Below, in pieces: positions 1 to 50,596 of a stretch of DNA of 50,596 nt; positions within the stretch are counted from its first letter, which is position 1; the number at the start of each line of letters is the position of its first letter. Made by a program: the position numbers and the translations under genes. The DNA is from Escherichia phage vB-EcoS-XT34. The notes under the pieces are model-generated. The model had not been told where the DNA came from, did not search any database, and saw only the letters and a list, made by a program, of their open reading frames with translations. The stretch lies in the sequence record OR767160. One strand, 5' to 3'.

Positions 1-110
1 TTGCAGCTATTGCAATGATTCACTTCACTATTGCACAGATAGCAATATTGCATCTATTGCAATGATGTTTTCGATTGTTGCGAATTGAGCAATGATTCAT
101 TGATGGGGGG
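1..110 (+). repeat. cluster of short direct repeats (ATTGCA / GCAATGAT) at the left end
   Basis: ATTGCA at about 9, 30, 46 and 56; GCAATGAT at about 12, 59 and 98. Confidence 0.6.
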
Positions 111-250: not shown

Positions 251-350
251 TTACGCCATGGTTACATTAAAATATCCTTATATAATAACCATTTATCTAT
301 ATTATTATTATTAATATATATATATGTAGATAATGTAGATAGTGGATATG
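251..350 (+). repeat. AT-rich element shared with 30586-30670
   Basis: TTACGCCATGGTTACATTAAAATATC followed by (TTA)n and (TA)n tracts; preceded by TTACGC-type short repeats. Confidence 0.7.
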
Positions 351-616: not shown

Positions 617-1138
617 ATGTCAAATCATAATCAACACGTAAGCCTGGGCGATGTCGTCCGCTACATGGCGGAGCAGGCTCTTAAGGCCGACGACCGAACT
701 TTCCATGTCCCAATCCATCTAATAGCTCGCCAGGTTTACGGCCTCACATCTAGTGATATAGGAGGCATAAGTCGTGAGGATCTGGATGTAGGTGGCAAGT
801 ACAGTATGGCAAAGCTGAAGCCGTCATATGTCGCCAATACGGTAGCCAGGATGCCAGAGATACAGGCGGCAAACGTTCGTGCAAAATTTTCAATTAAGGA
901 TGGTGATTTCGGTGATGACGTCGAGGTTCGGTGTGCTTATCTGTCTTTGGTTGATGGCGCAATCCAGACAGGAAAGCGAGTGAAGGCAAACTGCCAGATT
1001 GCAGAGAAGGCTGTGAGCGACTTTAAGGTCAAAATACTCAAGCTGATGCCATCCGTGACTAACTTTGAGGGCGATGAGATTACAGGAGCCATCAAGGCAA
1101 TCAAAATGTACCAGGAAATGATTAGGGAGACGAAATAA
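617..1138 (+). CDS. hypothetical early protein
   Basis: 173-aa ORF, first gene of the rightward early block, stop overlaps the next start (ATGA-type coupling). Confidence 0.5.
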   Translation: MSNHNQHVSLGDVVRYMAEQALKADDRTFHVPIHLIARQVYGLTSSDIGGISREDLDVGGKYSMAKLKPSYVANTVARMPEIQAANVRAKFSIKDGDFGDDVEVRCAYLSLVDGAIQTGKRVKANCQIAEKAVSDFKVKILKLMPSVTNFEGDEITGAIKAIKMYQEMIRETK

Positions 1139-1701
1139 TGGGGATGTTTGATTTTAACGAAGAGAAGCTGACAGATGAGCAGATTATGAAGATTGCTACG
1201 GAAGATGGGCTTCCACCACTACGAGTTGCAATCAATGCTAACGGATACCGACAGTCACAAAAGTACTGGTGCGAATTAGAAGTTATGCGTCGCGCAAACC
1301 TAAATCGTGAACAATGCGTCGTGGTTGAAAAGATCTGGAAGCAAGCGATAAATGGAAAAGGCGTTGTGGGAGTTCGCTCAACATATGAGGCGATCAGAAA
1401 GGTCCAGCCGTTCGTCGAGCGTAATGGAGTAATGAATAACCTGATTGACAATATCCTACCATCACTACAGGACGCGGGAATCATTTGCCTTATTGGTGAC
1501 AAGATATATGCACACCCATACCTGGTGGGCATGTATGGGAGAGACATTCACAAGTGGTGCGACTCATGGAGATCGGTTGAGCGCAAATCTCATAGCAAAT
1601 TGCAGTCAAGCTCAGACATGATTCATGGCTATGATGCCGATGAGGTGGAGAAGGCCATCCAGTTCTACCGGAAAGCGAAATCTCTCCTGAACGGTGAATA
1701 G
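1138..1701 (+). CDS. hypothetical protein, mini-paralog of the 527-aa protein at 46425-48008
   Basis: N-terminus MFDFNEEKL..LPPLRVAINANGYRQSQ and central NGKGVVGVRSTYEA..CLIGDKIY match the N- and C-terminal ends of the 527-aa protein; stop TAG lies inside the box motif. Confidence 0.6.
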   Translation: MGMFDFNEEKLTDEQIMKIATEDGLPPLRVAINANGYRQSQKYWCELEVMRRANLNREQCVVVEKIWKQAINGKGVVGVRSTYEAIRKVQPFVERNGVMNNLIDNILPSLQDAGIICLIGDKIYAHPYLVGMYGRDIHKWCDSWRSVERKSHSKLQSSSDMIHGYDADEVEKAIQFYRKAKSLLNGE

Positions 1702-30941: not shown

Positions 30942-31982
30942 ATGACCAAGCCACCGTTTCAATACTTCACGTCAGAAGAAATGAGCAACGACTTTTACCA
31001 CAGCAAAGATGAGTGGACATCAGAGTATGTATCAGGCTCATCACTCAGTAAGATCCATAGCACTTGTCCGGCAGCCTGGAAGTTTGAAATGAACTCGACG
31101 ACTAAGGCACTGGTCTTCGGTACGCAGTCGCATACCAACTTTGAGAGCAAAGCACTGTTTGAGCGTCAGTATCGCCGCGCACCGAAAGAAAGCGAGATTG
31201 AAAACGTGATCACTAGTCAGGCAGCATTGGCAACGAAATTAAAATCATTTGGCCTGACTGGTACAAGCGGTAAGCAATATCCAGAACTGATCAAGATGAT
31301 GGTTGATTGCGGCGAAGACCTCAACGTCATGTGGCTGATTGATATGATCGCACAATGTCAGGCGTGGGCCGATGGCGTGGAACTGGTTAAGGCGGAAGAC
31401 TACGACGCTTGCGTAAGTATGCGCCAAGTTCTTGAAATGATTCCTGAACATAACTCTTGCATGAACAGCGAGACGGCATTCCGTGAGTATTCTTTGTTCG
31501 GCGTAATCTGTGGCGTTAAAGTCAAGGTGCGACTTGACCATGTTGACATCATTAATGATCCAGAAGCCATCCGGCGCATGGGTTACGATCCTGAGATTCA
31601 CCCTGAAATCGTCGTCATCACTGATTACAAAACGACAATGAGCGCCAACCCGACCGAGTTCCCGCGCATGGCGTTCAACCTTGGATATTACCTCAAGATG
31701 GCATTGCAGCGTGACCTGTTCGTTAAATGCTTTGAGGAAACGCGACCTGTGGTTGTGCGCTTGCTGGCCCAGGAGAAGAAAGAACCTTACTTGCCTATGG
31801 CGTACCGCATGAGTAGCGATCAGCTTAAGATTGGTCGTGCGCAGTACATGAGCGTTATTCATACTTTCTCAATGTGCGAAGCGAATGACGTATGGCCTTC
31901 ATACAGCAACGGCGAACCAGAGATTGAGCTTGAGACTCCTGACTGGATTATGAAACAGTTCAAGCACATTCTGGAATCGTAG
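30942..31982 (+). CDS. recombination exonuclease (PD-(D/E)XK, RecB/lambda Exo-like)
   Basis: 346 aa, ITDYKTT motif; adjacent to Erf and SSB genes. Confidence 0.55.
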   Translation: MTKPPFQYFTSEEMSNDFYHSKDEWTSEYVSGSSLSKIHSTCPAAWKFEMNSTTKALVFGTQSHTNFESKALFERQYRRAPKESEIENVITSQAALATKLKSFGLTGTSGKQYPELIKMMVDCGEDLNVMWLIDMIAQCQAWADGVELVKAEDYDACVSMRQVLEMIPEHNSCMNSETAFREYSLFGVICGVKVKVRLDHVDIINDPEAIRRMGYDPEIHPEIVVITDYKTTMSANPTEFPRMAFNLGYYLKMALQRDLFVKCFEETRPVVVRLLAQEKKEPYLPMAYRMSSDQLKIGRAQYMSVIHTFSMCEANDVWPSYSNGEPEIELETPDWIMKQFKHILES

Positions 31983-32058: not shown

Positions 32059-32715
32059 ATGCGTACATCAGAGAAATTTTCGAATGTTTCAGCCGCTCTA
32101 ATTGCAGCCAAAAAGCAGTTTGCCATCGCAAAAAAATCAGGCTTCAATGCTCACCTGAAAAGCCATTACTCAAACCTGACGGACGTTCTGGATGCGGTTG
32201 AGCCAGCACTAAAAGAGCATGACCTTATGGTTATCCAGTCAAATCTTGACACGTCAACAGAGAAGGTAATGCACATTGAGACACTCATCCTTCACAGCTC
32301 CGGCGAGTGGCTTGCGTTCCAGTACAATATGCCGATCGAGAAGATTAGCGCCCAGGCTTACGGCTCAACAACCTCATACGGTCGCCGTTACGCATTGTGC
32401 GCGGCGCTTGGAATCACTCAGAGCGATGACGACGCTGAAATCGCGAAGCGCACGGCAGCGGACTACAAAAAACTGATCGCCAACTGTGAAAAACTGGAAG
32501 ACCTCCAGGTGATCTATAAGAGCGCGAAAGGTTCGCTTGGCGCGGCGGAATGGAAGATTGCAGAAGACCACTTGCAGAAGCGCAAGGCTGAACTGAGTAT
32601 CGGTAACGCTCGCGGTTTCCAGCCAGCGAAAAAGGCAGATACTCAAAAGGTTGAAGGCAAGGTTGCAAATGCACCTTCCGAACCAGTACAATCTGAATCC
32701 ATCGAACAATTCTAA
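32059..32715 (+). CDS. erf: single-strand annealing protein, Erf family
   Basis: 218 aa with Erf-like N-terminal region, between exonuclease and SSB genes. Confidence 0.6.
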   Translation: MRTSEKFSNVSAALIAAKKQFAIAKKSGFNAHLKSHYSNLTDVLDAVEPALKEHDLMVIQSNLDTSTEKVMHIETLILHSSGEWLAFQYNMPIEKISAQAYGSTTSYGRRYALCAALGITQSDDDAEIAKRTAADYKKLIANCEKLEDLQVIYKSAKGSLGAAEWKIAEDHLQKRKAELSIGNARGFQPAKKADTQKVEGKVANAPSEPVQSESIEQF

Positions 32716-32753: not shown

Positions 32754-33200
32754 ATGCCACACGTAATCACTGGTCAGATCCGTAAAGCACCATTCACCAA
32801 AGAAGGCAGCAACAATAACGGGCGTTGGAAAATGTACGCCGTCGAACTTTCAGAGCGAATGAAGATTCGAAATCAAAATGGAGAGGATGAGGCTGTTTAC
32901 AGCAACTACCGCGCCACGTTCTTCGCAAAAGAAAACGTTATGCAGTGGTATGATGAAGCGTTCCAGGAAGGTAAGGTTGTATCAATTTCTGCCGACACAC
33001 TTCACTTAGCATCGCGCCAGGGAAATGACGGTACTGTGTATGTGACCGCCGAAATGATCCGTCCTCAGTTGCAATTCAGCCAGCGTGAGCCAGCGCAGCA
33101 GAGCCAAGGCCAGCAGCAGCAACGCCAGCAGCCTCAGCAGCAACAACTCCAGCAACAACCGCAGCAGCAAAACCAGTTCGATGATGACATCCCGTTCTGA
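32754..33200 (+). CDS. ssb: single-stranded DNA-binding protein
   Basis: 148 aa, Gln/Pro-rich linker and acidic C-terminal tail ending DDDIPF. Confidence 0.8.
   Translation: MPHVITGQIRKAPFTKEGSNNNGRWKMYAVELSERMKIRNQNGEDEAVYSNYRATFFAKENVMQWYDEAFQEGKVVSISADTLHLASRQGNDGTVYVTAEMIRPQLQFSQREPAQQSQGQQQQRQQPQQQQLQQQPQQQNQFDDDIPF
33092..33175 (+). repeat. CAG/CAA-rich low-complexity repeat encoding the SSB poly-Gln linker
   Basis: repeated cagcag/cagcaa units. Confidence 0.6.
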
Positions 33201-35610: not shown

Positions 35611-36552
35611 TTATGAATACTTATCTATCAGATCCTGCGGCGTATATAGCTTTCGCTCAAGTCCCATCTTGAAATTTCCACTGTTCGGCACGACAACTTT
35701 TAAATCCCTCTCGTCAGCCATGTAAAGCGTTCGCAAATCATCCGCTGTACACGCTACTCTCAACTCCCGATCGCCATGATAGCGATAAGCAACAATCTCA
35801 AGGTTCTCAGGGGAGAAAGTCACCCACACTTCCTGACTGGTCGCCATCTTCACACGATAACCATCAATCAGATCGCTTGTCATATATATAGCTGCATCAG
35901 CCTCGCCACTCCCCAGCTTAACCACTGAGCCGCGAGAATAATCACGCGCAAGGAAAGTGTATTCGCCATTATCATAAGCAAACATGACGTTACACATATC
36001 CTCATCAATTCCGTCATGGTGGACCATGTAGCACGGTAGTGCGTGTATTAGCTCCTCAGTGCCATTCTGACGCACTTTTACGCCAACATCATACGAATCC
36101 TCAGTTAGGCACTCATACACGCTTAAATCGGTGCTCTCGCGCTTTTCTGTGCGCTCCATTACAGCCACGCACGACTCATGATCCGCCATCTTGCCAAGGC
36201 CTTTCTCCGGTACGCGTGATACCCTGCGGTAAGCCTTCGACTTATAATCCTGTGGCACTTTGCCAAGGAATCGACCGAGAATATTAATCACTTCACTGTA
36301 AGGCTCACCAGTCAGCTTCATCATCCAGCCAACACCGGAGTCGTTACCGCACTGGTTACAGATTGCTCCACCGTCACCAGGGGAGTTAATGTTATCAGTC
36401 CAGCGGAAGCGATCAGATCCTCCACAGTGAGGGCACATCTGGTGCTTCTTATTGAACACGATGGACTGCAAACCACAAATTGACTGTAAGGCTTCTCGCC
36501 ATAACCCCTTCATATATGGCAGAACTTCTTCTTTCTGATACACCTCATTCAC
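35611..36552 (-). CDS. DNA primase (zinc-binding plus Toprim-like)
   Basis: 313 aa with CPHCGG..CNQCG zinc-ribbon motif near the N-terminus. Confidence 0.55.
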   Translation of the reverse strand: MNEVYQKEEVLPYMKGLWREALQSICGLQSIVFNKKHQMCPHCGGSDRFRWTDNINSPGDGGAICNQCGNDSGVGWMMKLTGEPYSEVINILGRFLGKVPQDYKSKAYRRVSRVPEKGLGKMADHESCVAVMERTEKRESTDLSVYECLTEDSYDVGVKVRQNGTEELIHALPCYMVHHDGIDEDMCNVMFAYDNGEYTFLARDYSRGSVVKLGSGEADAAIYMTSDLIDGYRVKMATSQEVWVTFSPENLEIVAYRYHGDRELRVACTADDLRTLYMADERDLKVVVPNSGNFKMGLERKLYTPQDLIDKYS

Positions 36553-37179: not shown

Positions 37180-39174
37180 ATGTTGCCTATCGAGAAGCTA
37201 GTTGCAAACTTCGATAAAGAAAGAATTAAACAGATTCAGAAGGATTACCAGTTTGGAGAGATAACCCCTTACGAATTCCAGTGTGTTACATTTGATGCAA
37301 TCGGAAAGGCCATTGGGAAGTATGAAAGCCCATTCATAGCAGACCTGTCGGTTTCTGCTGGTAAAACTATCATTCTCGCCATGATCGGTAAGAGAATGGA
37401 ACAGTTAGGGCTTCCTTATATGGTGCTATCTCGCCAGTCTGAGATTGTGAGCCAGGACAGCGAAGAGCTTCGCAATTTTGGCATTCGTAATAGCGTCTAT
37501 TGCGCTGGCCTTAACGTTAAATCAGTTTATTACCCAACCATAGTTGCTAGCGAAGGAACTGCGGCTAACGGCTTATTTAAGGGGCTTGGTGACTATGTTC
37601 CTGCCGTTATAGCTATAGATGAGTGCCATATGGTCGATCACATGGATATCGTTGAAGCCGAGGAGAACGAAGAAACATTTGAGCAAATGAGCACAAAGAA
37701 AGGCGAGATGGTTTTTAAGGATGGCGTAAACACAGGATTGCTTGGCACTGGTCGTGCGCAGTACACGCTAATCATTACTGAAATGAAACGACGTTGTCGT
37801 GAGAAGTATGGTCGCGAGCTTCGTATCTTTGGGCTAACTGGCAGCCCGTATCGCAACAATGATCACATAGTGGTTAGCAATCCAAATATCCGTGGATTCT
37901 GGCGCAAAACAGTGATCCAGGTCCCAACCAATTACCTTGTTGATTTGGGATTCGTTGTTCCAACTGTTTACGGAGAGGTTGGTGATTTGGGTTACGACCT
38001 TGCGGAGTTTGCTCCGGATGGCAGCGATGGTGTGAAAGACTTCAGCAAGAAAGAGATGGATGCAATGGCTGCAAAGATTCACGAAAACCAATCAATGACT
38101 CAAAAGATTATGGGTTTTCTTGTAAAAATTCTAGAGACTCGTAACGCCGCATTGGTCACCTGCGCCGGAAAACTCCATTGTGATGAGGCCGCTGCGGCAT
38201 TGCCGGATGGATACCCTTACGCCATTATCACCGATTCTACCGGAGAGAGGAAGCGCAGAGAGATTCTTGCAGATTGCCAGACTGGAAAGTACAAGATTAT
38301 CTTTCAGATTGGATGTCTAACCACGGGCGTAAACCAACCGCTGTGGGATACTAGCGTCATACTACGCAAGATTGGCAGTCTAACCTTAATGATTCAGCTT
38401 CTTGGTCGTGGCATGCGAAAACTAAAAAAGGCGCACATAGATGCTGGGTTCAAGAAGGAGGACCACTTGGTATTAGACTTTGCCGGAGCGCTTGATGACA
38501 TGGCAGAGCTTTACTTTGACCCAATAATTGAGGAGATTCAGGCTGAGAAGTTTAAATCCTCAAGAAAAGGTGGTGATGAGGCTCGCCAGTGTCCGAAATG
38601 TGGATATGAGAATTCGCCATTTGCTAGACGCTGTAGCAATAAGATTAATGGCGTTAGATGCGATCACTTTTTCCAGTTCACAACATGTGATGATATTACC
38701 GACCAACAAACAAAGGCGGTAATCAAGAAAGGTTGTGGAACTAAAAATGACATAGCAGCAAAAGTTTGTCGCGAATGCGGGGAAATGCTTAAAGACCCAA
38801 ACGCTAACCTGACTGGAAAGATGTATCGTCGCGGAGACTATTTGCGTGTTTATGACTTCCAGGTTGGATTGAGCAAAAATCAAACTGGCATTGTAGTTAA
38901 GTACAATATCATGGCCCACAACGGAGAAAGATTTAACGCTTGGGAGTTCTTTAATCCAGAATCTGACCATCGAGTTTGTAGTGTGCTATGGAAAAACTTT
39001 TGCCTTTCTCATATTGAGAATCGCACAGAGGCAGCACGAATTGGCAAACTTCGTAACGCAAAAATGATTATGATGAACGCAGATAAATTCCGAGCTCCTG
39101 TGCAGGTGACGCATCGTCGAAATGCAAAAGGTAAGGATATAATTGCCGTGAAAAATTTTGGAGAGTTAAAATGA
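37180..39174 (+). CDS. superfamily 2 DNA helicase
   Basis: 664 aa, Walker A SAGKT, DECH box (IAIDECHMV), C-terminal Cys cluster. Confidence 0.75.
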   Translation: MLPIEKLVANFDKERIKQIQKDYQFGEITPYEFQCVTFDAIGKAIGKYESPFIADLSVSAGKTIILAMIGKRMEQLGLPYMVLSRQSEIVSQDSEELRNFGIRNSVYCAGLNVKSVYYPTIVASEGTAANGLFKGLGDYVPAVIAIDECHMVDHMDIVEAEENEETFEQMSTKKGEMVFKDGVNTGLLGTGRAQYTLIITEMKRRCREKYGRELRIFGLTGSPYRNNDHIVVSNPNIRGFWRKTVIQVPTNYLVDLGFVVPTVYGEVGDLGYDLAEFAPDGSDGVKDFSKKEMDAMAAKIHENQSMTQKIMGFLVKILETRNAALVTCAGKLHCDEAAAALPDGYPYAIITDSTGERKRREILADCQTGKYKIIFQIGCLTTGVNQPLWDTSVILRKIGSLTLMIQLLGRGMRKLKKAHIDAGFKKEDHLVLDFAGALDDMAELYFDPIIEEIQAEKFKSSRKGGDEARQCPKCGYENSPFARRCSNKINGVRCDHFFQFTTCDDITDQQTKAVIKKGCGTKNDIAAKVCRECGEMLKDPNANLTGKMYRRGDYLRVYDFQVGLSKNQTGIVVKYNIMAHNGERFNAWEFFNPESDHRVCSVLWKNFCLSHIENRTEAARIGKLRNAKMIMMNADKFRAPVQVTHRRNAKGKDIIAVKNFGELK

Positions 39175-40139: not shown

Positions 40140-40643
40140 ATGAAATGGAGAAATCGAATACAATATAAAGATGGTTCACTTTACTGGCTTGAGGCGAAAG
40201 ATAAAAGCAAATCATTCAATCATCGACTTTCTGGAAAGAAAATAGGAACGGTTATGAAGGATGGTTACATGAGATTCAGGTTTAATGATAAAGCATACTC
40301 ATGCAGCAGGGTGACGTGGGAGTACTTTAATGGAGAAATTCCTATCGGAATGGAGATTGATCATATAAACCATATAAGAGATGATAACAGAATTGAAAAT
40401 TTAAGATTGGTATCAAGATCTGATAATCAAAAAAATCTAAGTATATCAAAAAACAACAAATCAGGAGTAACTGGCGTCACATACCATAAACCTTCTGGTT
40501 TATGGTCCGCCAGAATAAACTCTGGAGGAAGAAGGTTTGAGCTTGGCTACTACAAAACCATAGAAGAAGCAAGGTTGGCAAGAATTGATGCTCAAAATGA
40601 ATTTGGTTTTCATGATAATCATGGAAAGAAAATAAAAAATTAA
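40140..40643 (+). CDS. HNH homing endonuclease with AP2-like domain (copy 5)
   Basis: SRVTWEY..IDHINHIRDDNRIENLRLVS and EARLARIDAQNEFGFHDNHG. Confidence 0.75.
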   Translation: MKWRNRIQYKDGSLYWLEAKDKSKSFNHRLSGKKIGTVMKDGYMRFRFNDKAYSCSRVTWEYFNGEIPIGMEIDHINHIRDDNRIENLRLVSRSDNQKNLSISKNNKSGVTGVTYHKPSGLWSARINSGGRRFELGYYKTIEEARLARIDAQNEFGFHDNHGKKIKN

Positions 40644-44448: not shown

Positions 44449-44949
44449 ATGAAGCAGAAGCTTGTAATTAGTGCGGCGACGGCTGCAGCAATATACATTG
44501 CAGCACCGATCATTGAGCTTGTAGAAGGCGTGGAGAACAAGCCATACATGGACATTGCTGGAGTGCCTACGGTCTGCGCTGGAGTTACTGGCTCCGATGT
44601 GATATGGGGCAAGAGCTACAGTAACAGGGAGTGCCGGAACTTGCTGGAGAAGCACATTCAGATTCATGGCAAGCATGTGCAGAATGCAGTCACCTACCCT
44701 ATATCCCCAAAGACAAGGGCGGCGCTAATCAGTTTTAGCTACAACGTTGGCGGATACGCCATGAGGAAGTCTACATCTGTAAGGCTAATTAACCAGGGTA
44801 AGGTTGAGCAGGGTTGTAAGGCTCTAGGTATGTGGACAAAAGCAAGAGTAAATGGGAGGCTTGTTACAGTAAAGGGTTTAGTAAACCGAAGGAATGAAGA
44901 GATTAAGCTATGCATTGAGGGTGAGATGGAAATGAAAAGGGGCAATTAA
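44449..44949 (+). CDS. endolysin, lysozyme-like with N-terminal signal-anchor-release (SAR)-type domain
   Basis: 166 aa; weakly hydrophobic Ala/Gly-rich N-terminus followed by E..D..T catalytic spacing (IELVEGVENKPYMDIAGVPTVC). Confidence 0.7.
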   Translation: MKQKLVISAATAAAIYIAAPIIELVEGVENKPYMDIAGVPTVCAGVTGSDVIWGKSYSNRECRNLLEKHIQIHGKHVQNAVTYPISPKTRAALISFSYNVGGYAMRKSTSVRLINQGKVEQGCKALGMWTKARVNGRLVTVKGLVNRRNEEIKLCIEGEMEMKRGN

Positions 44950-45476
44950 GCCCCGTGATTTTCGTGAAAGCCTAGCTCCATCTCTGCGGCTTTTCTAGCT
45001 AAGACTGCATCATCGAATGAGTCTCCGTAGTAAAGCCGCTTATTCTTGCCATTAATTTTTATCTGAGAGAACCATTTACCCCTTGCTGAGTCCCAGCACA
45101 CACCAACGACTCCGGATGTATTTAAAGAAGACATTGGCATGTTCATTTCCTGATCAGACCTTGATGCCAGTCTTAGGTTTTCAATTCTATTATCATCCTT
45201 AATGTGGTTTATATGATCGATCTCTATACCATCAGGTATCTGGCCTTTGTGCATTTCCCATATAATCCTATGCACCTTCCTGTACCTGTTGTTAAATCTA
45301 ACCAATAGGTATCCATGTTTATCTGGAGTTCCAACCATTTTTCCGGCATTTCTTGAGTTGTACTGATTGCTCATGTCATCACGACGCTTCCTCCATAAAT
45401 TATTTCCGTCATAATGAAAGTATTTTGACCAGTTCATGTATACTATCCTCTCTAGTTTCATTTCATCAACAATCAT
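44946..45476 (-). CDS. HNH homing endonuclease with AP2-like domain (copy 6)
   Basis: HRIIWEM..IDHINHIKDDNRIENLRLAS and FDDAVLARKAAEMELGFHENHG; on the opposite strand, between endolysin and spanin genes. Confidence 0.75.
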   Translation of the reverse strand: MIVDEMKLERIVYMNWSKYFHYDGNNLWRKRRDDMSNQYNSRNAGKMVGTPDKHGYLLVRFNNRYRKVHRIIWEMHKGQIPDGIEIDHINHIKDDNRIENLRLASRSDQEMNMPMSSLNTSGVVGVCWDSARGKWFSQIKINGKNKRLYYGDSFDDAVLARKAAEMELGFHENHGA

Positions 45477-45493: not shown

Positions 45494-45883
45494 ATGTTTT
45501 TGCAAAAAATGCTATTATGCTCTGTAATTCTGCTTTCAGGTTGTTCGGCGACATCTGCGCTGACTGGTTTAATTGGCAGCAAGCCAGAAATCAGTGCGCA
45601 GGCTGGGGCTGAGAACGTGAAGCAAACGGTAGGTGTTACAGGAAAGGTGGATAAGTCAAACGACAACGACACCACTATCAAAGATTCAAAGGTAGGAAAG
45701 GTTGATACGTCAAACGGGAAATCTGTCAGCACATCAAGCATCAAGGCTGACACTATCGTTGCTGATAAGATTGAAATAAGGAATGATGAAGGAGGTGGAA
45801 GGATTGCGTTTGGACTTGCTTTAATTCTAATTAGCCTATTGCTTTTCTCATTTACAATATGGACTACTTTTCGCAAAAAATAA
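45494..45883 (+). CDS. unimolecular spanin (u-spanin) candidate
   Basis: N-terminal lipoprotein signal with lipobox LLSGC-S and a single C-terminal transmembrane helix, as in the phage T1 u-spanin. Confidence 0.55.
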   Translation: MFLQKMLLCSVILLSGCSATSALTGLIGSKPEISAQAGAENVKQTVGVTGKVDKSNDNDTTIKDSKVGKVDTSNGKSVSTSSIKADTIVADKIEIRNDEGGGRIAFGLALILISLLLFSFTIWTTFRKK

Positions 45884-45886
45884 AAG

Positions 45887-45910
45887 GAGCCGAAAGGCTC
45901 CCTTTTTTTA
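45887..45910 (+). terminator. rho-independent terminator
   Basis: ggagcc-gaaa-ggctcc followed by CTTTTTTT; same hairpin as at 15088. Confidence 0.7.
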
Positions 45911-46046: not shown

Positions 46047-46421
46047 TCAGAACTGCATCTGATTATCGCGTCGATTACGACCTGGCTCTCCAAATAACTC
46101 TCCATCGCTCATCTTCTCTATGTTCATCATCTCCCATGTGTAGCGATCGTTCTCACCGCCATAGCACTTGAAATGAAATTCAAATGGCCTTTTTTGCGCG
46201 CCTTTGGACCAGTACCAGTTGTTCACGCCGTCAAGGTATCCTTCTCCCATGCATCTTGCAATAAACTCCTTTGATGATGACGATGCGAAATAGCGAGGCG
46301 TAACTCCAGCAGCCTTAGCCAGTCGCTCACACTCCCTGTGCTTGTATATGAAAACCGCCAGGTGCTGACGGTTGAATTTTTCATAGCCTTCGCAAAAACG
46401 GTACAGATCCAGAAGAAACAT
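46047..46421 (-). CDS. hypothetical protein
   Basis: 124-aa ORF co-oriented with the leftward block; overlaps the alternative 45908-46105 ORF, which I rank lower. Confidence 0.4.
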   Translation of the reverse strand: MFLLDLYRFCEGYEKFNRQHLAVFIYKHRECERLAKAAGVTPRYFASSSSKEFIARCMGEGYLDGVNNWYWSKGAQKRPFEFHFKCYGGENDRYTWEMMNIEKMSDGELFGEPGRNRRDNQMQF

Positions 46422-46424
46422 AAT

Positions 46425-48008
46425 TTACCCCAGCAGTCGCGGATTAATGTAAATCTTATCACCAATCAGGCACGTATAGTTCTTCTCATCCAGCATAGGG
46501 ATCAGGTGATCTTTGATGCGAGTCATTACGCCACTTTGCCCTTCAAAGGGCTTAACCTTACGAGCCGCTTCATATAGTGATCGGACACCTACAACGCCTT
46601 TCCCGTTCTTACCTTGCTTGATCAGAATGTCGATCAGCTTATTCATCTCCGCATGGTCGCCAGCATGACCAGCAGCGTTTGCAGATGACAGATAAGTCTT
46701 ACTCAGTTCCTGGAACATAATTACCGCTTCCTGCATTGTGTCAAGCTCAATCTCTCTGGACTTCTGCGGACTCCCGCCATTGGGATTAAACCAGTTACGC
46801 ACAGTGTGAAGAACAGCCGCGATCCTGATAGCCTGCTTATCGAACTTACCCAGCGCGCCGCGAAGCATTGTGTGTGAATACTTCCCGCCGTCCGCAAGGT
46901 GAGGTTCCATATCCTGACGCGCACGGTTGAGATATTTCATCGCCGATGTGCTCACTGTCAGATTGACTTTGTGTTCGCTCATGATCTCATGGACCAGACG
47001 GAAGTAGTCCGCCTTGAGTCCGCCATCAATCGGCTCGTATGTTGATTCGCCTTTTTCGTCAACGAATACACGCTCGCCAAGGAATGACTTCTCACGCACA
47101 AGCAAGAAACGTTCTGACACACCGATACCACGCGCACCAGCATTCATGATCGCGTTGATTGTTTCATCCTGTGCAATTACAGAGATGCAACCCATCGCAA
47201 TAAAGCTCATGTTATTGTCTGCGTTTGCACGCGCGATAGATACGTTTCCAGCATCCCATGCTTTCAGCACAAGCTCGCTGTTCGTTTTCTTTGAGCCGTC
47301 ACCATAGGTCATGCCTAAAAGTGAGTTCACGCTCGTTGCTTCATCCGAGATCACAGAGAAATTACCCTGGCGGTTGTTGATTCGTGCAAGACCTTCCGGC
47401 GTGGTGTCGGATACGGGGAATACGATGTCACAAAGGCGTTCCAGTTTTTCTTCCAGTTCTTCTTTTTCCTCAAACAGCGCCGCCATGTCAGATGGTGATT
47501 TCTCCTGCTTCATCTCCTTGGATAGAGCGGAAAGCTTAGCCATAATCTTCTTGCGGTCGCGCTTTCGGATCTCGTTGAGTCGTTCAGTCTCTGCGATCAT
47601 CGGGGCCAGCGAAAGTGAGTTAATGGCTGATTTACCTGTCGATGGTGGCTGACTGGTTACGACGTACAGCGCGGTAGGCTGTTGTGTTCCGTGATACTCA
47701 ACCGTAAATCGGCCCAGCATGGCGGCTGATATGCATCCGAGGAAATGCATGTAAGCGGACGACTCGGGGAACTGAACTGAACGAGCGGCATTGCTTGACA
47801 GCTTACCAACGACATCATAATCGTTACCAAGTGAGATAACCGGATATTTGTCACCGCCTGAGTCAATTTCTGTTGGGGCTTTCCAGAACGACTGGCTCTG
47901 CCTGTACCCATTCGCATTAATGGCAACGCGCAAAGGCGGCAGGTTGTCGGCAGCGGCTACAGCCATTACCTGATCGATTGACAATTTATCTTCGTTGAAA
48001 TCAAACAT
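46425..48008 (-). CDS. large P-loop-like protein of unknown function (candidate NTPase)
   Basis: 527 aa, deviant Walker A PPSTGKS and Walker B-like VISDE; N- and C-terminal segments shared with the 187-aa protein at 1138-1701. Confidence 0.6.
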   Translation of the reverse strand: MFDFNEDKLSIDQVMAVAAADNLPPLRVAINANGYRQSQSFWKAPTEIDSGGDKYPVISLGNDYDVVGKLSSNAARSVQFPESSAYMHFLGCISAAMLGRFTVEYHGTQQPTALYVVTSQPPSTGKSAINSLSLAPMIAETERLNEIRKRDRKKIMAKLSALSKEMKQEKSPSDMAALFEEKEELEEKLERLCDIVFPVSDTTPEGLARINNRQGNFSVISDEATSVNSLLGMTYGDGSKKTNSELVLKAWDAGNVSIARANADNNMSFIAMGCISVIAQDETINAIMNAGARGIGVSERFLLVREKSFLGERVFVDEKGESTYEPIDGGLKADYFRLVHEIMSEHKVNLTVSTSAMKYLNRARQDMEPHLADGGKYSHTMLRGALGKFDKQAIRIAAVLHTVRNWFNPNGGSPQKSREIELDTMQEAVIMFQELSKTYLSSANAAGHAGDHAEMNKLIDILIKQGKNGKGVVGVRSLYEAARKVKPFEGQSGVMTRIKDHLIPMLDEKNYTCLIGDKIYINPRLLG

Positions 48009-48079
48009 TAAAATAACTCCTTAGTTGGTGCGCTAATGTTAACGCACCTATGGTAAAACCGCTCGCCAGAAAATGCTAC

Positions 48080-48469: not shown

Positions 48470-48512
48470 AATATACAGGAAAAGCCCCGAAGGGCTTTAG
48501 CAATTAGTGCTA
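48470..48512 (-). promoter_or_regulatory. box element (TAGCACTAATTGCTAAA) plus TATATT and CTCATCGAAACGA leader, leftward
   Basis: minus-strand box TAG is the stop codon of the methyltransferase-like gene; 22-nt spacer with hairpin agccc-ttcg-gggct. Confidence 0.5.
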
Positions 48513-49178
48513 TTTGTTGCTTTCATATAGTGCGCGAGCAAAACCTTCCGGTGTTAATGAGCGTAGCACCTTTGTCTTTGCAGACTTTCCGCCGCAGTAT
48601 TTCCAGGCCCAAAAGAATCCAATGCTCTCAACTGGTTTTTTAATCGGCTCAACAAATCCATTTCCACACCAAATACAAGTCTTTTTGTTGTAGGCATTGC
48701 GAGTGGGCATCCTTGGGTGATAAACCTCATCGTGATCAATGTAACCGCCATAATCGCAAGGGTGGAAATAGAAGTCCGGTTTACGCCATAGAGTTGACAG
48801 TTTGCCTACAGGATTCTCAACCATCCATGGGGCATTAAAGTGATTGCCGACTTCCTCGACGAGCTTCGCATTAGCCAGGGCATACGCCAGTTCATCCTCA
48901 CTGCGCTCATGCTGTGATCCAGACTGAGAGAACAGCGTGCAATCAGGGAATCCGATAACCATCTGCGCCGGAGGCAGGCCGAGCAATTCACACTTGGTGA
49001 TGAAATCCTTGTCAATCCACATGTTGACGTAGTGAATGTTCTCATGCTTCATCTTGATGTGATATTCGCCATGATTGCCGGAGTCCGCGTTGAAGCAGTA
49101 GACGGTGTGACCATCTTCCGCCCATGGGAGGCCAGCGATACCAGAACCGTCAAAAAGACAATAAATTACCTTTTTCAT
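48510..49178 (-). CDS. compact C5-cytosine methyltransferase-like protein
   Basis: 222 aa with motif I-like LFDGSGIAG, motif IV-like GFPDCTLFSQSG and ENV-like MVENPVG; too short for a canonical target-recognition domain. Confidence 0.5.
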   Translation of the reverse strand: MKKVIYCLFDGSGIAGLPWAEDGHTVYCFNADSGNHGEYHIKMKHENIHYVNMWIDKDFITKCELLGLPPAQMVIGFPDCTLFSQSGSQHERSEDELAYALANAKLVEEVGNHFNAPWMVENPVGKLSTLWRKPDFYFHPCDYGGYIDHDEVYHPRMPTRNAYNKKTCIWCGNGFVEPIKKPVESIGFFWAWKYCGGKSAKTKVLRSLTPEGFARALYESNK

Positions 49179-50495: not shown

Positions 50496-50531
50496 GATAA
50501 TTTCCTTTAGTGCGTGTCGTTTCGATGAGGT

Positions 50532-50576
50532 AATAATAGCGAATCACACCTGATCGGTCATTAGCAAAAAGTGCTA
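50532..50576 (-). promoter_or_regulatory. box element (TAGCAC-TTT-TTGCTAA) plus TATTAT and CTCATCGAAACGA leader, leftward
   Basis: minus-strand box near the right end of the window, same spacing and leader as the other leftward copies. Confidence 0.45.
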
Positions 50577-50596
50577 TTCGTTCGATTTATGGATTG

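Follow-up and report, generated by a model that had tools for sequence, protein, structure and literature searches.

A DUF3987 AAA+ protein with an MCM-like fold as the likely replication-fork helicase of T1-like phages

The 527-residue product of a leftward gene of Escherichia phage vB-EcoS-XT34 is, in our judgement, most probably an MCM-like AAA+ helicase of the DUF3987 family that serves as the replication-fork helicase of this T1-like phage. The sequence analysed (record OR767160; 50,596 nucleotides, hereafter the window) is the complete genome of a T1-like siphophage of the Drexlerviridae, Nouzillyvirus-like. The last six and first six bases of the window form the contiguous GGATTGTTGCAG of relatives, which shows that the window begins at an arbitrary point of a circularly permuted sequence. 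The gene is of a known kind, already labelled 'DNA helicase' in close relatives, and the finding is real but ordinary.

The helicase gene and its setting

The ORF, which an earlier note made from the letters alone had described as a leftward gene for a 527-residue protein, was confirmed on the minus strand. It lies within a leftward-transcribed block that runs from about position 50560 to a bidirectional terminator, and its immediate surroundings are as follows.

48497..48513, minus strand: nearest upstream copy of the 17-nt intergenic repeat ATAGCACNNNTTGNTAA
48017..48022, minus strand: strong Shine-Dalgarno sequence AAGGAG, 8 nt 5' of the helicase ATG (direct sequence reading)
46425..48008, minus strand: helicase ORF, ATG start, 527 aa, stop codon included in the coordinates
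46047..46421, minus strand: gene for a 124-aa protein, coupled to the helicase gene (3 nt from the helicase stop codon to the ATG)
45882..45905, no strand assigned: bidirectional hairpin terminator, end of the leftward block

The window holds the 17-nt repeat 15 times, where 0.07 would be expected, always oriented along local transcription, and the same intergenic element has been described for phage TLS (PMC11447400). The copy at 48497-48513 is followed, in order, by a 117-aa gene, the helicase gene, the 124-aa gene, a 65-aa gene and the terminator, and probably marks the start of a transcription module comprising the 117-aa gene, the helicase gene and the 124-aa gene. The 124-aa protein belongs to PHROG 2794 and had no match in Pfam, NCBIfam, PADLOC or the PDB. 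In ESCO41, TLS and SH6, too, its gene directly follows that of the helicase, after 2-4 nt, and the protein is 94%, 69% and 56% identical in the three phages, respectively; the last two values are close to those for the helicase (71% in TLS and 56% in SH6). From this synteny, it is plausible that the 124-aa protein is an accessory subunit of the helicase.

The protein belongs to the DUF3987 family

The earlier note had been unable to assign the protein to a known family, a view that profile searches overturned. Residues 81-430 match positions 3-349 of the 364 in the Pfam DUF3987 model (PF13148; E 4.5e-39, 135.1 bits vs a cutoff of 27), and the whole protein matches PHROG 2373, 'DNA helicase', from end to end (E 2.3e-255). 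No NCBIfam model matched, and neither Pfam MCM (PF00493) nor MCM_OB did so even at E values up to 1. A search of the protein with PADLOC returned a single match, attributable to coiled-coil noise (E 0.0078), and lent no support to a defence-related role, which was discarded.

The gene is a core gene, carried by essentially all T1-like (Drexlerviridae) phages: tblastn located it in 925 phage records across the family, 898 of them with a coverage of at least 80%. At the DNA level it is 94-97% identical in the Escherichia phages p111, P818, 50EP, PH1062 and ESCO41 (genus Nouzillyvirus); the amino acid identity is 92% in Rtp ('rtp67 conserved protein'), 71% in TLS ('DNA helicase'), 56% in SH6 and 65% in Klebsiella weberviruses. 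Many of the matching records carry the annotation 'DNA helicase', others 'hypothetical protein'. A scan of 1.84 billion cluster representatives yielded 2159 relatives at E <= 0.001. In the homologue search, a second, profile-based round contributed only six new sequences.

Some longer relatives are fusions. One (P0165) carries a DnaG-type CHC2 zinc ribbon (E 1.6e-26) N-terminal to DUF3987, a second (P0228) a PriCT_2 domain (E 1.5e-18) and a third (P0186) the N-terminal domain of DnaB (E 2e-22). DUF3987 sits here where a replicative helicase domain is usually found. Phage DUF3987 proteins were linked to MCM by profile comparison and described as divergent SF6 helicases with a C-terminal wHTH domain, frequently fused or adjacent to AEP or DnaG primases, and were proposed to be replicative helicases (Kazlauskas et al., 2016; PMC4889955); a 2018 survey of AEP primases arrived at the same prediction from domain substitution (PMC5862659). 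[quoted passage not shown] For Drexlerviridae orthologues, our literature search found no biochemical or genetic work.

An AAA+ fold closest to MCM

An AlphaFold2 model of the protein, built on 37 homologues, has a mean pLDDT of 89.3 and a pTM of 0.87. When it was compared with the PDB using Foldseek, the top 50 matches were all chains of MCM2-7 or of archaeal MCM (best E 8.5e-6), and the AAA+ alpha/beta core and helical lid of the model can be superposed on MCM. Sequence searches of the PDB gave nothing meaningful (best E 0.12 with the single protein and 1.0 with the family profile), and only the fold comparison exposed the MCM relationship. A confident match to a non-NTPase fold, named in the earlier note as the outcome that would refute it, did not appear, and the reading of the protein as an NTPase thus stands, with an AAA+ ATPase fold that is closest to MCM. 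The protein is MCM-like in fold and lies outside the MCM family proper, since it has neither a Pfam MCM match nor an N-terminal OB/zinc domain.

The MCM chains were followed in the list of fold matches by RavA (11.4), BchI (10.6), the SCCmec helicase Cch (9.5), ComM (9.2), BrxL (8.8) and the SaPI5 primase-helicase (8.3). That the protein is a chaperone, an AAA+ protein like MoxR/RavA or Mg-chelatase that does not act on DNA, we regard as scarcely credible: scores of that type are clearly below those of MCM, and DNA is indicated by the winged helix, by the relatives that are fused to primase domains and by the family member characterised as a helicase. Separate matches of 62-100 residues were to the winged-helix domains of ORC2, Cdc6, Scc1, ScpA and Stn1.

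The earlier note had suggested a replication initiator or helicase loader; the NTPase and the link to replication are retained here, and the loader is not. An ATPase that recruits the host DnaB without itself unwinding DNA, in the manner of lambda P or DnaC, would agree with the combination of an AAA+ ATPase and a winged helix, as in the ORC/Cdc6 initiators, and with the use of the host polymerase by the phage; the best structural match of the protein was not the ATPase core of the initiator clade (ORC/Cdc6, DnaA, DnaC), and we consider such a role very unlikely.

Domain anatomy and conserved residues

The model and an alignment of 148 diverse family representatives, with no more than 50% mutual identity, define the following elements, from the N- to the C-terminus.

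47874..48008, minus strand: N-terminal three-helix module, aa 1-45 (model helices 11-21, 25-33 and 36-41)
47079..47768, minus strand: AAA+ ATPase core, aa 81-310
47628..47651, minus strand: Walker A variant QPPSTGKS, aa 120-127 (family form Q-P-x-x-x-G-K-[ST])
47433..47627, minus strand: charged antiparallel helical hairpin of about 65 residues, aa 128-192, an extension of the Walker A helix
47340..47360, minus strand: Walker B strand FSVISDE, aa 217-223 (model strand 217-221)
47193..47252, minus strand: beta-hairpin before the sensor-1 strand, aa 253-272 (strands 255-258 and 267-270, then 273-279)
47106..47174, minus strand: A-Q-D-E (aa 279-282) through S-E-R-F (aa 298-301)
46794..47024, minus strand: helical lid, aa 329-405 (helices 329-343, 354-371, 380-387 and 389-405)
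46428..46676, minus strand: C-terminal winged-helix domain, aa 445-527, canonical

The Walker A-like PPSTGKS noted earlier is part of the P-loop QPPSTGKS, which follows a strand at residues 115-119; Gln120 and Pro121 are each found in 142 of the 148 representatives, and Lys126 and Ser/Thr127 in 147. The helical hairpin that comes next (helices 126-168 and 172-191; pLDDT 87-96 in the model) has 14 Lys/Arg and 14 Asp/Glu among its 65 residues and is present in 133/148 relatives. In the near-invariant T203-P-E205, both the Thr and the Glu are kept in 146/148. A helix at residues 204-214 is all that DSSP assigns between strand 2 and Walker B, and a helix-2-insert beta-hairpin is not evident.

Of the VISDE proposed in the earlier note as a Walker B-like motif, the location holds, within FSVISDE, as does the glutamate (Glu223, 147/148), but position 222 is an Asp in only 62 of the 148, with Ala in 47 and Ser in 32. 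As Asp222 varies, the Walker B of the family is better written h-h-S-x-E, VISDE being the form of a subfamily as judged from the alignment. The canonical Walker B Asp is thus dispensable in the family, and the catalytic geometry may for this reason differ from that of textbook AAA+ proteins.

Arg260, on the beta-hairpin, is kept in 147/148 relatives; by its topology in the model this hairpin would be the pre-sensor-1 hairpin that contacts DNA. Gln280 (146/148) closes strand 273-279 and Arg300 (147/148) lies in S-E-R-F, after helix 281-292; their positions and conservation make them candidates for sensor 1 and the arginine finger, respectively, and we take S-E-R-F, with Arg300, to resemble the 'SRF' arginine-finger motif of MCM. 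In the lid, Lys388 is invariant (148/148) and Arg383 less conserved (110/148), and either, on the same grounds, is a candidate sensor 2. Thus, Lys126, Glu223, Arg260, Gln280, Arg300 and Lys388 are each kept in at least 146 of the 148 representatives, and motif residues retained over such a diverse set are not chance matches. The N-terminal module is present in 111/148 relatives and also heads a mini-paralogue encoded elsewhere in the genome (see below).

A predicted role at the replication fork

The following genes for replication and recombination were identified in the genome.

30942..31982: exonuclease VIII
32059..32715: Erf
32754..33200: SSB
35611..36552, minus strand: stand-alone Zn-ribbon primase, 313 aa, with no helicase domain
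37180..39174: SF2 helicase with zinc ribbons

A VRR-NUC nuclease, Dam and a metallophosphoesterase-type 'repair exonuclease' are also encoded. The primase matches PHROG 510, 'DNA primase', over profile positions 11-340 of 667, and the Pfam Zn_Ribbon_Prim model (E 1.9e-12); because only the first half of the PHROG 510 model is covered, some members of that family probably carry a helicase domain as well. The spread of the primase over phage groups parallels that of the DUF3987 protein, and the primase is the presumed partner of the helicase. None of the ORFs scanned was seen to encode a polymerase; T1 and TLS are described as having no DNA polymerase gene (PMC11447400).

We infer from these data both a helicase activity and a role at the fork. 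MCM and the characterised DUF3987 member suggest by analogy that the protein assembles into a ring, probably of six subunits, and the near-invariance of Arg300 is consistent with a trans-acting arginine finger in such a ring. ATP would be bound at the subunit interface, between the Q-P-x-x-x-G-K-S loop and Glu223 of one subunit and Arg300 of the next, and its hydrolysis would move the Arg260 hairpin along single-stranded DNA, so that the duplex is unwound. The partners at the fork would be the separate Zn-ribbon primase, the phage SSB and, because the phage itself lacks a gene for a polymerase, DNA polymerase III of the host. The ORC/Cdc6-like winged helix at the C-terminus and the N-terminal module are probably where DNA or partner proteins dock. 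Amber mutants in genes 1 and 2 of T1 are DNA-negative, a background statement that carries no weight in the present reading; our search of the literature on T1 replication genetics, on the T1 origin and on host dna-gene requirements found nothing usable.

Speaking against a role at the fork, the primase gene is 10 kb away, in another transcription unit, and it is the SF2 helicase gene that adjoins it. The protein could instead be a motor for recombination or repair, that is, a translocase for branch migration or fork remodelling like ComM, RuvB or MCM8/9, which would serve the recombination-dependent replication and the concatemer formation of T1-like phages. However, the gene belongs to the early leftward block and lies outside the recombination module (30.9-33.2 kb), and the fusion partners found in the family are primases and DnaB-N, with no recombination proteins among them. 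Moreover, the SF2 helicase, for which the best NCBIfam match, although far under the model cutoff, is to the repair helicase RadD, is the more natural repair helicase. A recombination motor is therefore an unlikely alternative, and the replicative helicase remains the preferred reading.

A paralogue and a candidate origin region

A tblastn search of the genome with its own helicase returned a match to an ORF of 187 codons on the plus strand, close to the start of the window.

1138..1701, plus strand: 'head-and-tail' paralogue, 187 aa, with the N-terminal module, the winged helix and a 55-aa tail, and no ATPase
1..100, no strand assigned: palindrome cluster, with ATTGCAAT at 9 and 56, GCAATATTGC at 42 and further ATTGCA half-sites
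262..345, no strand assigned: AT-rich tract with (ATT)n, GC 12.5% over 80 nt

Residues 3-44 of the paralogue are 71% identical to residues 1-42 of the helicase, and residues 40-131 are 45% identical to residues 436-527; the 55-residue C-terminal tail is conserved. The protein belongs to PHROG 7327 and has 272 homologues, with full-length copies in about 104 phage records. Over the shared N-terminal segment, the two genes agree at only some 62% of DNA positions and many of the differences are silent, from which it follows that the paralogue is old and under selection rather than the product of a recent conversion. It is the second gene of a rightward operon; this operon and the leftward block with the helicase gene are divergent, with about 700 nt of non-coding DNA between them.

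The first 100 nt or so are the most widely conserved part of this intergenic region. The palindromes ATTGCAAT and GCAATATTGC occur nowhere else in the window, and their cores are invariant in five phages of the Braunvirinae and Rogunavirinae (Sf12, DTL, Phleasolo, JulesPiccard and 12397I). The four relatives whose sequence reaches far enough have an equivalent AT-rich tract, with a GC content of 12-19%, equally far from the palindromes. The motif TATTGCAATGAT is not enriched across the window when two mismatches are allowed (10 matches, 7.6 expected); what is notable about the palindromes is only their clustering, their uniqueness and the conservation of the exact forms. We consider the cluster a candidate cis element bound by a protein, be it an origin, an operator or a pac site, and the tract at 262..345 a candidate unwinding element or promoter region.

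These elements bear on a refinement of the fork-helicase reading, in which the protein is an initiator as well as a helicase: the winged helix would read the origin, and the protein would melt it, load itself and then act as the fork helicase, with the SaPI Rep proteins and the viral E1 and large T antigen as model systems. The winged helix at the C-terminus is similar to those with which ORC/Cdc6 bind origins, the head of the operon carries the conserved palindromes together with an AT-rich tract, and none of the genes scanned was recognised as a separate initiator or loader. Small genes without an assigned function are still numerous, however, the coupled 124-aa gene among them, and any one could encode a loader; the palindromes lie about 2.6 kb from the helicase gene and may just as well be a pac site or an operator. 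In MCM and in kleisins, winged helices make contacts with proteins as well as with DNA. The SaPI Reps share the layout of the protein and have iterons that flank an AT-rich region (PMC9371898), but there are no repeats inside the helicase gene or directly beside it. A self-loading initiator-helicase is a possibility that we hold to be the less probable form of the helicase reading. A search for iterons, promoters and AT-rich tracts in and beside the gene returned only short two-copy repeats at chance level, and a SaPI-like origin directly downstream of the gene, where there are no iterons, was ruled out.

A more specific proposal, which we put forward as speculative and rather improbable as a whole, is that a self-loading helicase reads the palindromes at 1-100 by the (ATT)n tract, that this region is the T1-like origin, and that the paralogue controls loading. 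The paralogue, encoded across that region from the leftward block, would then compete for the same sites on the DNA or on partners, or act as an adaptor, with the coupled 124-aa protein as a possible additional accessory subunit.

Implications

The annotation of the gene changes from an unassigned P-loop protein to a DUF3987/MCM-like replicative helicase. In the re-annotation of TLS, the SF2 helicase beside the primase is the only one discussed as 'the helicase' (PMC11447400), and our results correct this habit of granting T1-like phages a single helicase, the SF2 RadD-like protein. The T1-like phages, which are very common coliphages, probably combine an AAA+ helicase of the archaeal/eukaryotic style with a Zn-ribbon primase of the bacterial style and with the host polymerase; this combination had been predicted in general terms before. 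The paralogue, the coupled 124-aa gene and the region with the palindromes and the AT-rich tract are leads to the T1-like origin and to helicase loading.

Comparison with known systems

The orthologues in ESCO41 (gp27), Rtp (Rtp67), TLS (gp71, 'yfiJ') and SH6 (gp70) are found at the corresponding place in the leftward block, with the same gene, for a protein of 124-135 aa, downstream; the ESCO41 helicase gene is 94% identical at the DNA level. They represent the same gene in closely related phages, with no substantive difference, and several are called 'DNA helicase'.

The 527-residue protein and AgaPH share the Pfam DUF3987 domain, the Walker A Lys and the Walker B Glu, a small C-terminal domain and an association with a primase. 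Unlike AgaPH, the phage protein has no PriCT domain and carries in its place the 45-residue three-helix N-terminal module; its primase is of the Zn-ribbon type (T7 gp4-like) and is encoded 10 kb away, whereas the primase gene of AgaPH is adjacent. In addition, the Walker A of the XT34 subfamily starts with Gln-Pro, and its Walker B Asp is variable.

The identity to archaeal and eukaryotic MCM (SF6) is only 10-18%, and the Pfam MCM model gave no match. In the place of the N-terminal OB-fold/zinc domain of MCM the phage protein has three short helices; the helix-2-insert hairpin of MCM is not seen in the model, which has instead the 65-residue helical hairpin after Walker A. AgaPH, the one DUF3987 helicase tested, moves 5'-3', opposite to MCM, and the MCM mechanism is thus not transferable wholesale. 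Lastly, SaPI Rep and SCCmec Cch (DUF927) belong to another Pfam family and have structural scores below those of MCM. The palindromes and AT-rich tract of XT34 resemble the origins of self-loading winged-helix helicases such as the SaPI Reps, but in the SaPIs the iterons lie directly downstream of rep, whereas the XT34 helicase gene has none beside it.

A paralogue of the helicase that lacks the motor

The helicase (the 527-aa DUF3987-family, MCM-like AAA+ protein, for which this activity is presumed) has a short paralogue, recognized by sequence comparison with it and encoded by the second gene of a rightward operon:

617-1138, + strand, DUF7174 protein (match E 6e-48), first gene of the rightward operon
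1138-1701, + strand, head-and-tail helicase paralogue, 187 aa

The start of the paralogue is 71% identical to the N-terminal 42 residues of the helicase, and this segment is joined straight to a winged helix with 45% identity to the C-terminal winged helix of the helicase; the ATPase domain is absent, and a conserved tail of 55 aa is added. The winged helix most closely resembles those of ORC/Cdc6. The protein belongs to PHROG 7327, and its homologues number 272, being full-length in about 104 phage records. In the related phage JulesPiccard, bas03_0064 has the same position as the DUF7174 gene, likewise directly 5′ of the mini-paralogue.

The divergent intergenic region

The paralogue-encoding operon diverges from the leftward block, the minus-strand genes that include the helicase gene, and the intergenic region between them holds two elements:

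1-100, palindrome cluster, adjoining 50496-50596 across the arbitrary window start
262-345, (ATT)n tract, 12.5% GC, about 260 nt from the palindrome cluster

The cluster comprises two copies of ATTGCAAT, one of GCAATATTGC and additional half-sites; these palindromes are found at no other position in the genome, and their cores are identical at every base in five phages from two subfamilies. This palindrome element is a candidate origin, operator cluster or pac site. Positions 121-150 contain three GATC sites.

The window contains 15 copies of the 17-nt element ATAGCACNNNTTGNTAA (0.07 expected), most of them in intergenic gaps and every one oriented with local transcription. Examples are:

1698, 2455, 4350, 5713, 6342, 35542, 40066 and 41616, + strand, ATAGCACNNNTTGNTAA
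48497, 50090 and 50561, - strand, ATAGCACNNNTTGNTAA

The 21-nt direct repeat of phage TLS is the same element (PMC11447400), which is a candidate promoter or enhancer.

A possible accessory gene and a second helicase

Two other genes are:

46047-46421, - strand, 124-aa protein, PHROG 2794
37180-39174, + strand, second helicase (SF2) with C-terminal zinc ribbons

Between the helicase stop codon and the start of the 124-aa gene there are 3 nt; the gene keeps this placement in ESCO41, TLS and SH6, and its product is 69% (TLS) and 56% (SH6) identical to its counterparts, close to the values for the helicase (71% and 56%). PHROG 2794 was its sole match, searches of Pfam, NCBIfam, PADLOC and PDB being otherwise blank; its possible roles are those of accessory subunit and loader. 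The SF2 protein is treated as the replicative helicase in the TLS literature (PMC11447400); our analysis makes that role doubtful. The nearest NCBIfam relative of the SF2 protein is RadD, a repair helicase (E 2e-50), with a score that falls far short of the cutoff for that model.

HNH genes and comparison with ESCO41

Homing-endonuclease-like genes of the HNH type (HNH_3 plus AP2) are dispersed across the genome:

39171-39653, + strand, HNH gene
40140-40643, + strand, HNH gene
44946-45476, - strand, HNH gene, flanked by the endolysin and spanin genes

ESCO41 has no HNH gene in the equivalent endolysin/spanin interval. An extra ESCO41 gene, gp26 (69 aa; 2555-2764 in the ESCO41 locus), separates the helicase gene from the 117-aa gene upstream of it, whereas the corresponding site in the window is merely a 71-nt gap (48009-48079), inside which lies a GGTGCG...CGCACC inverted repeat.
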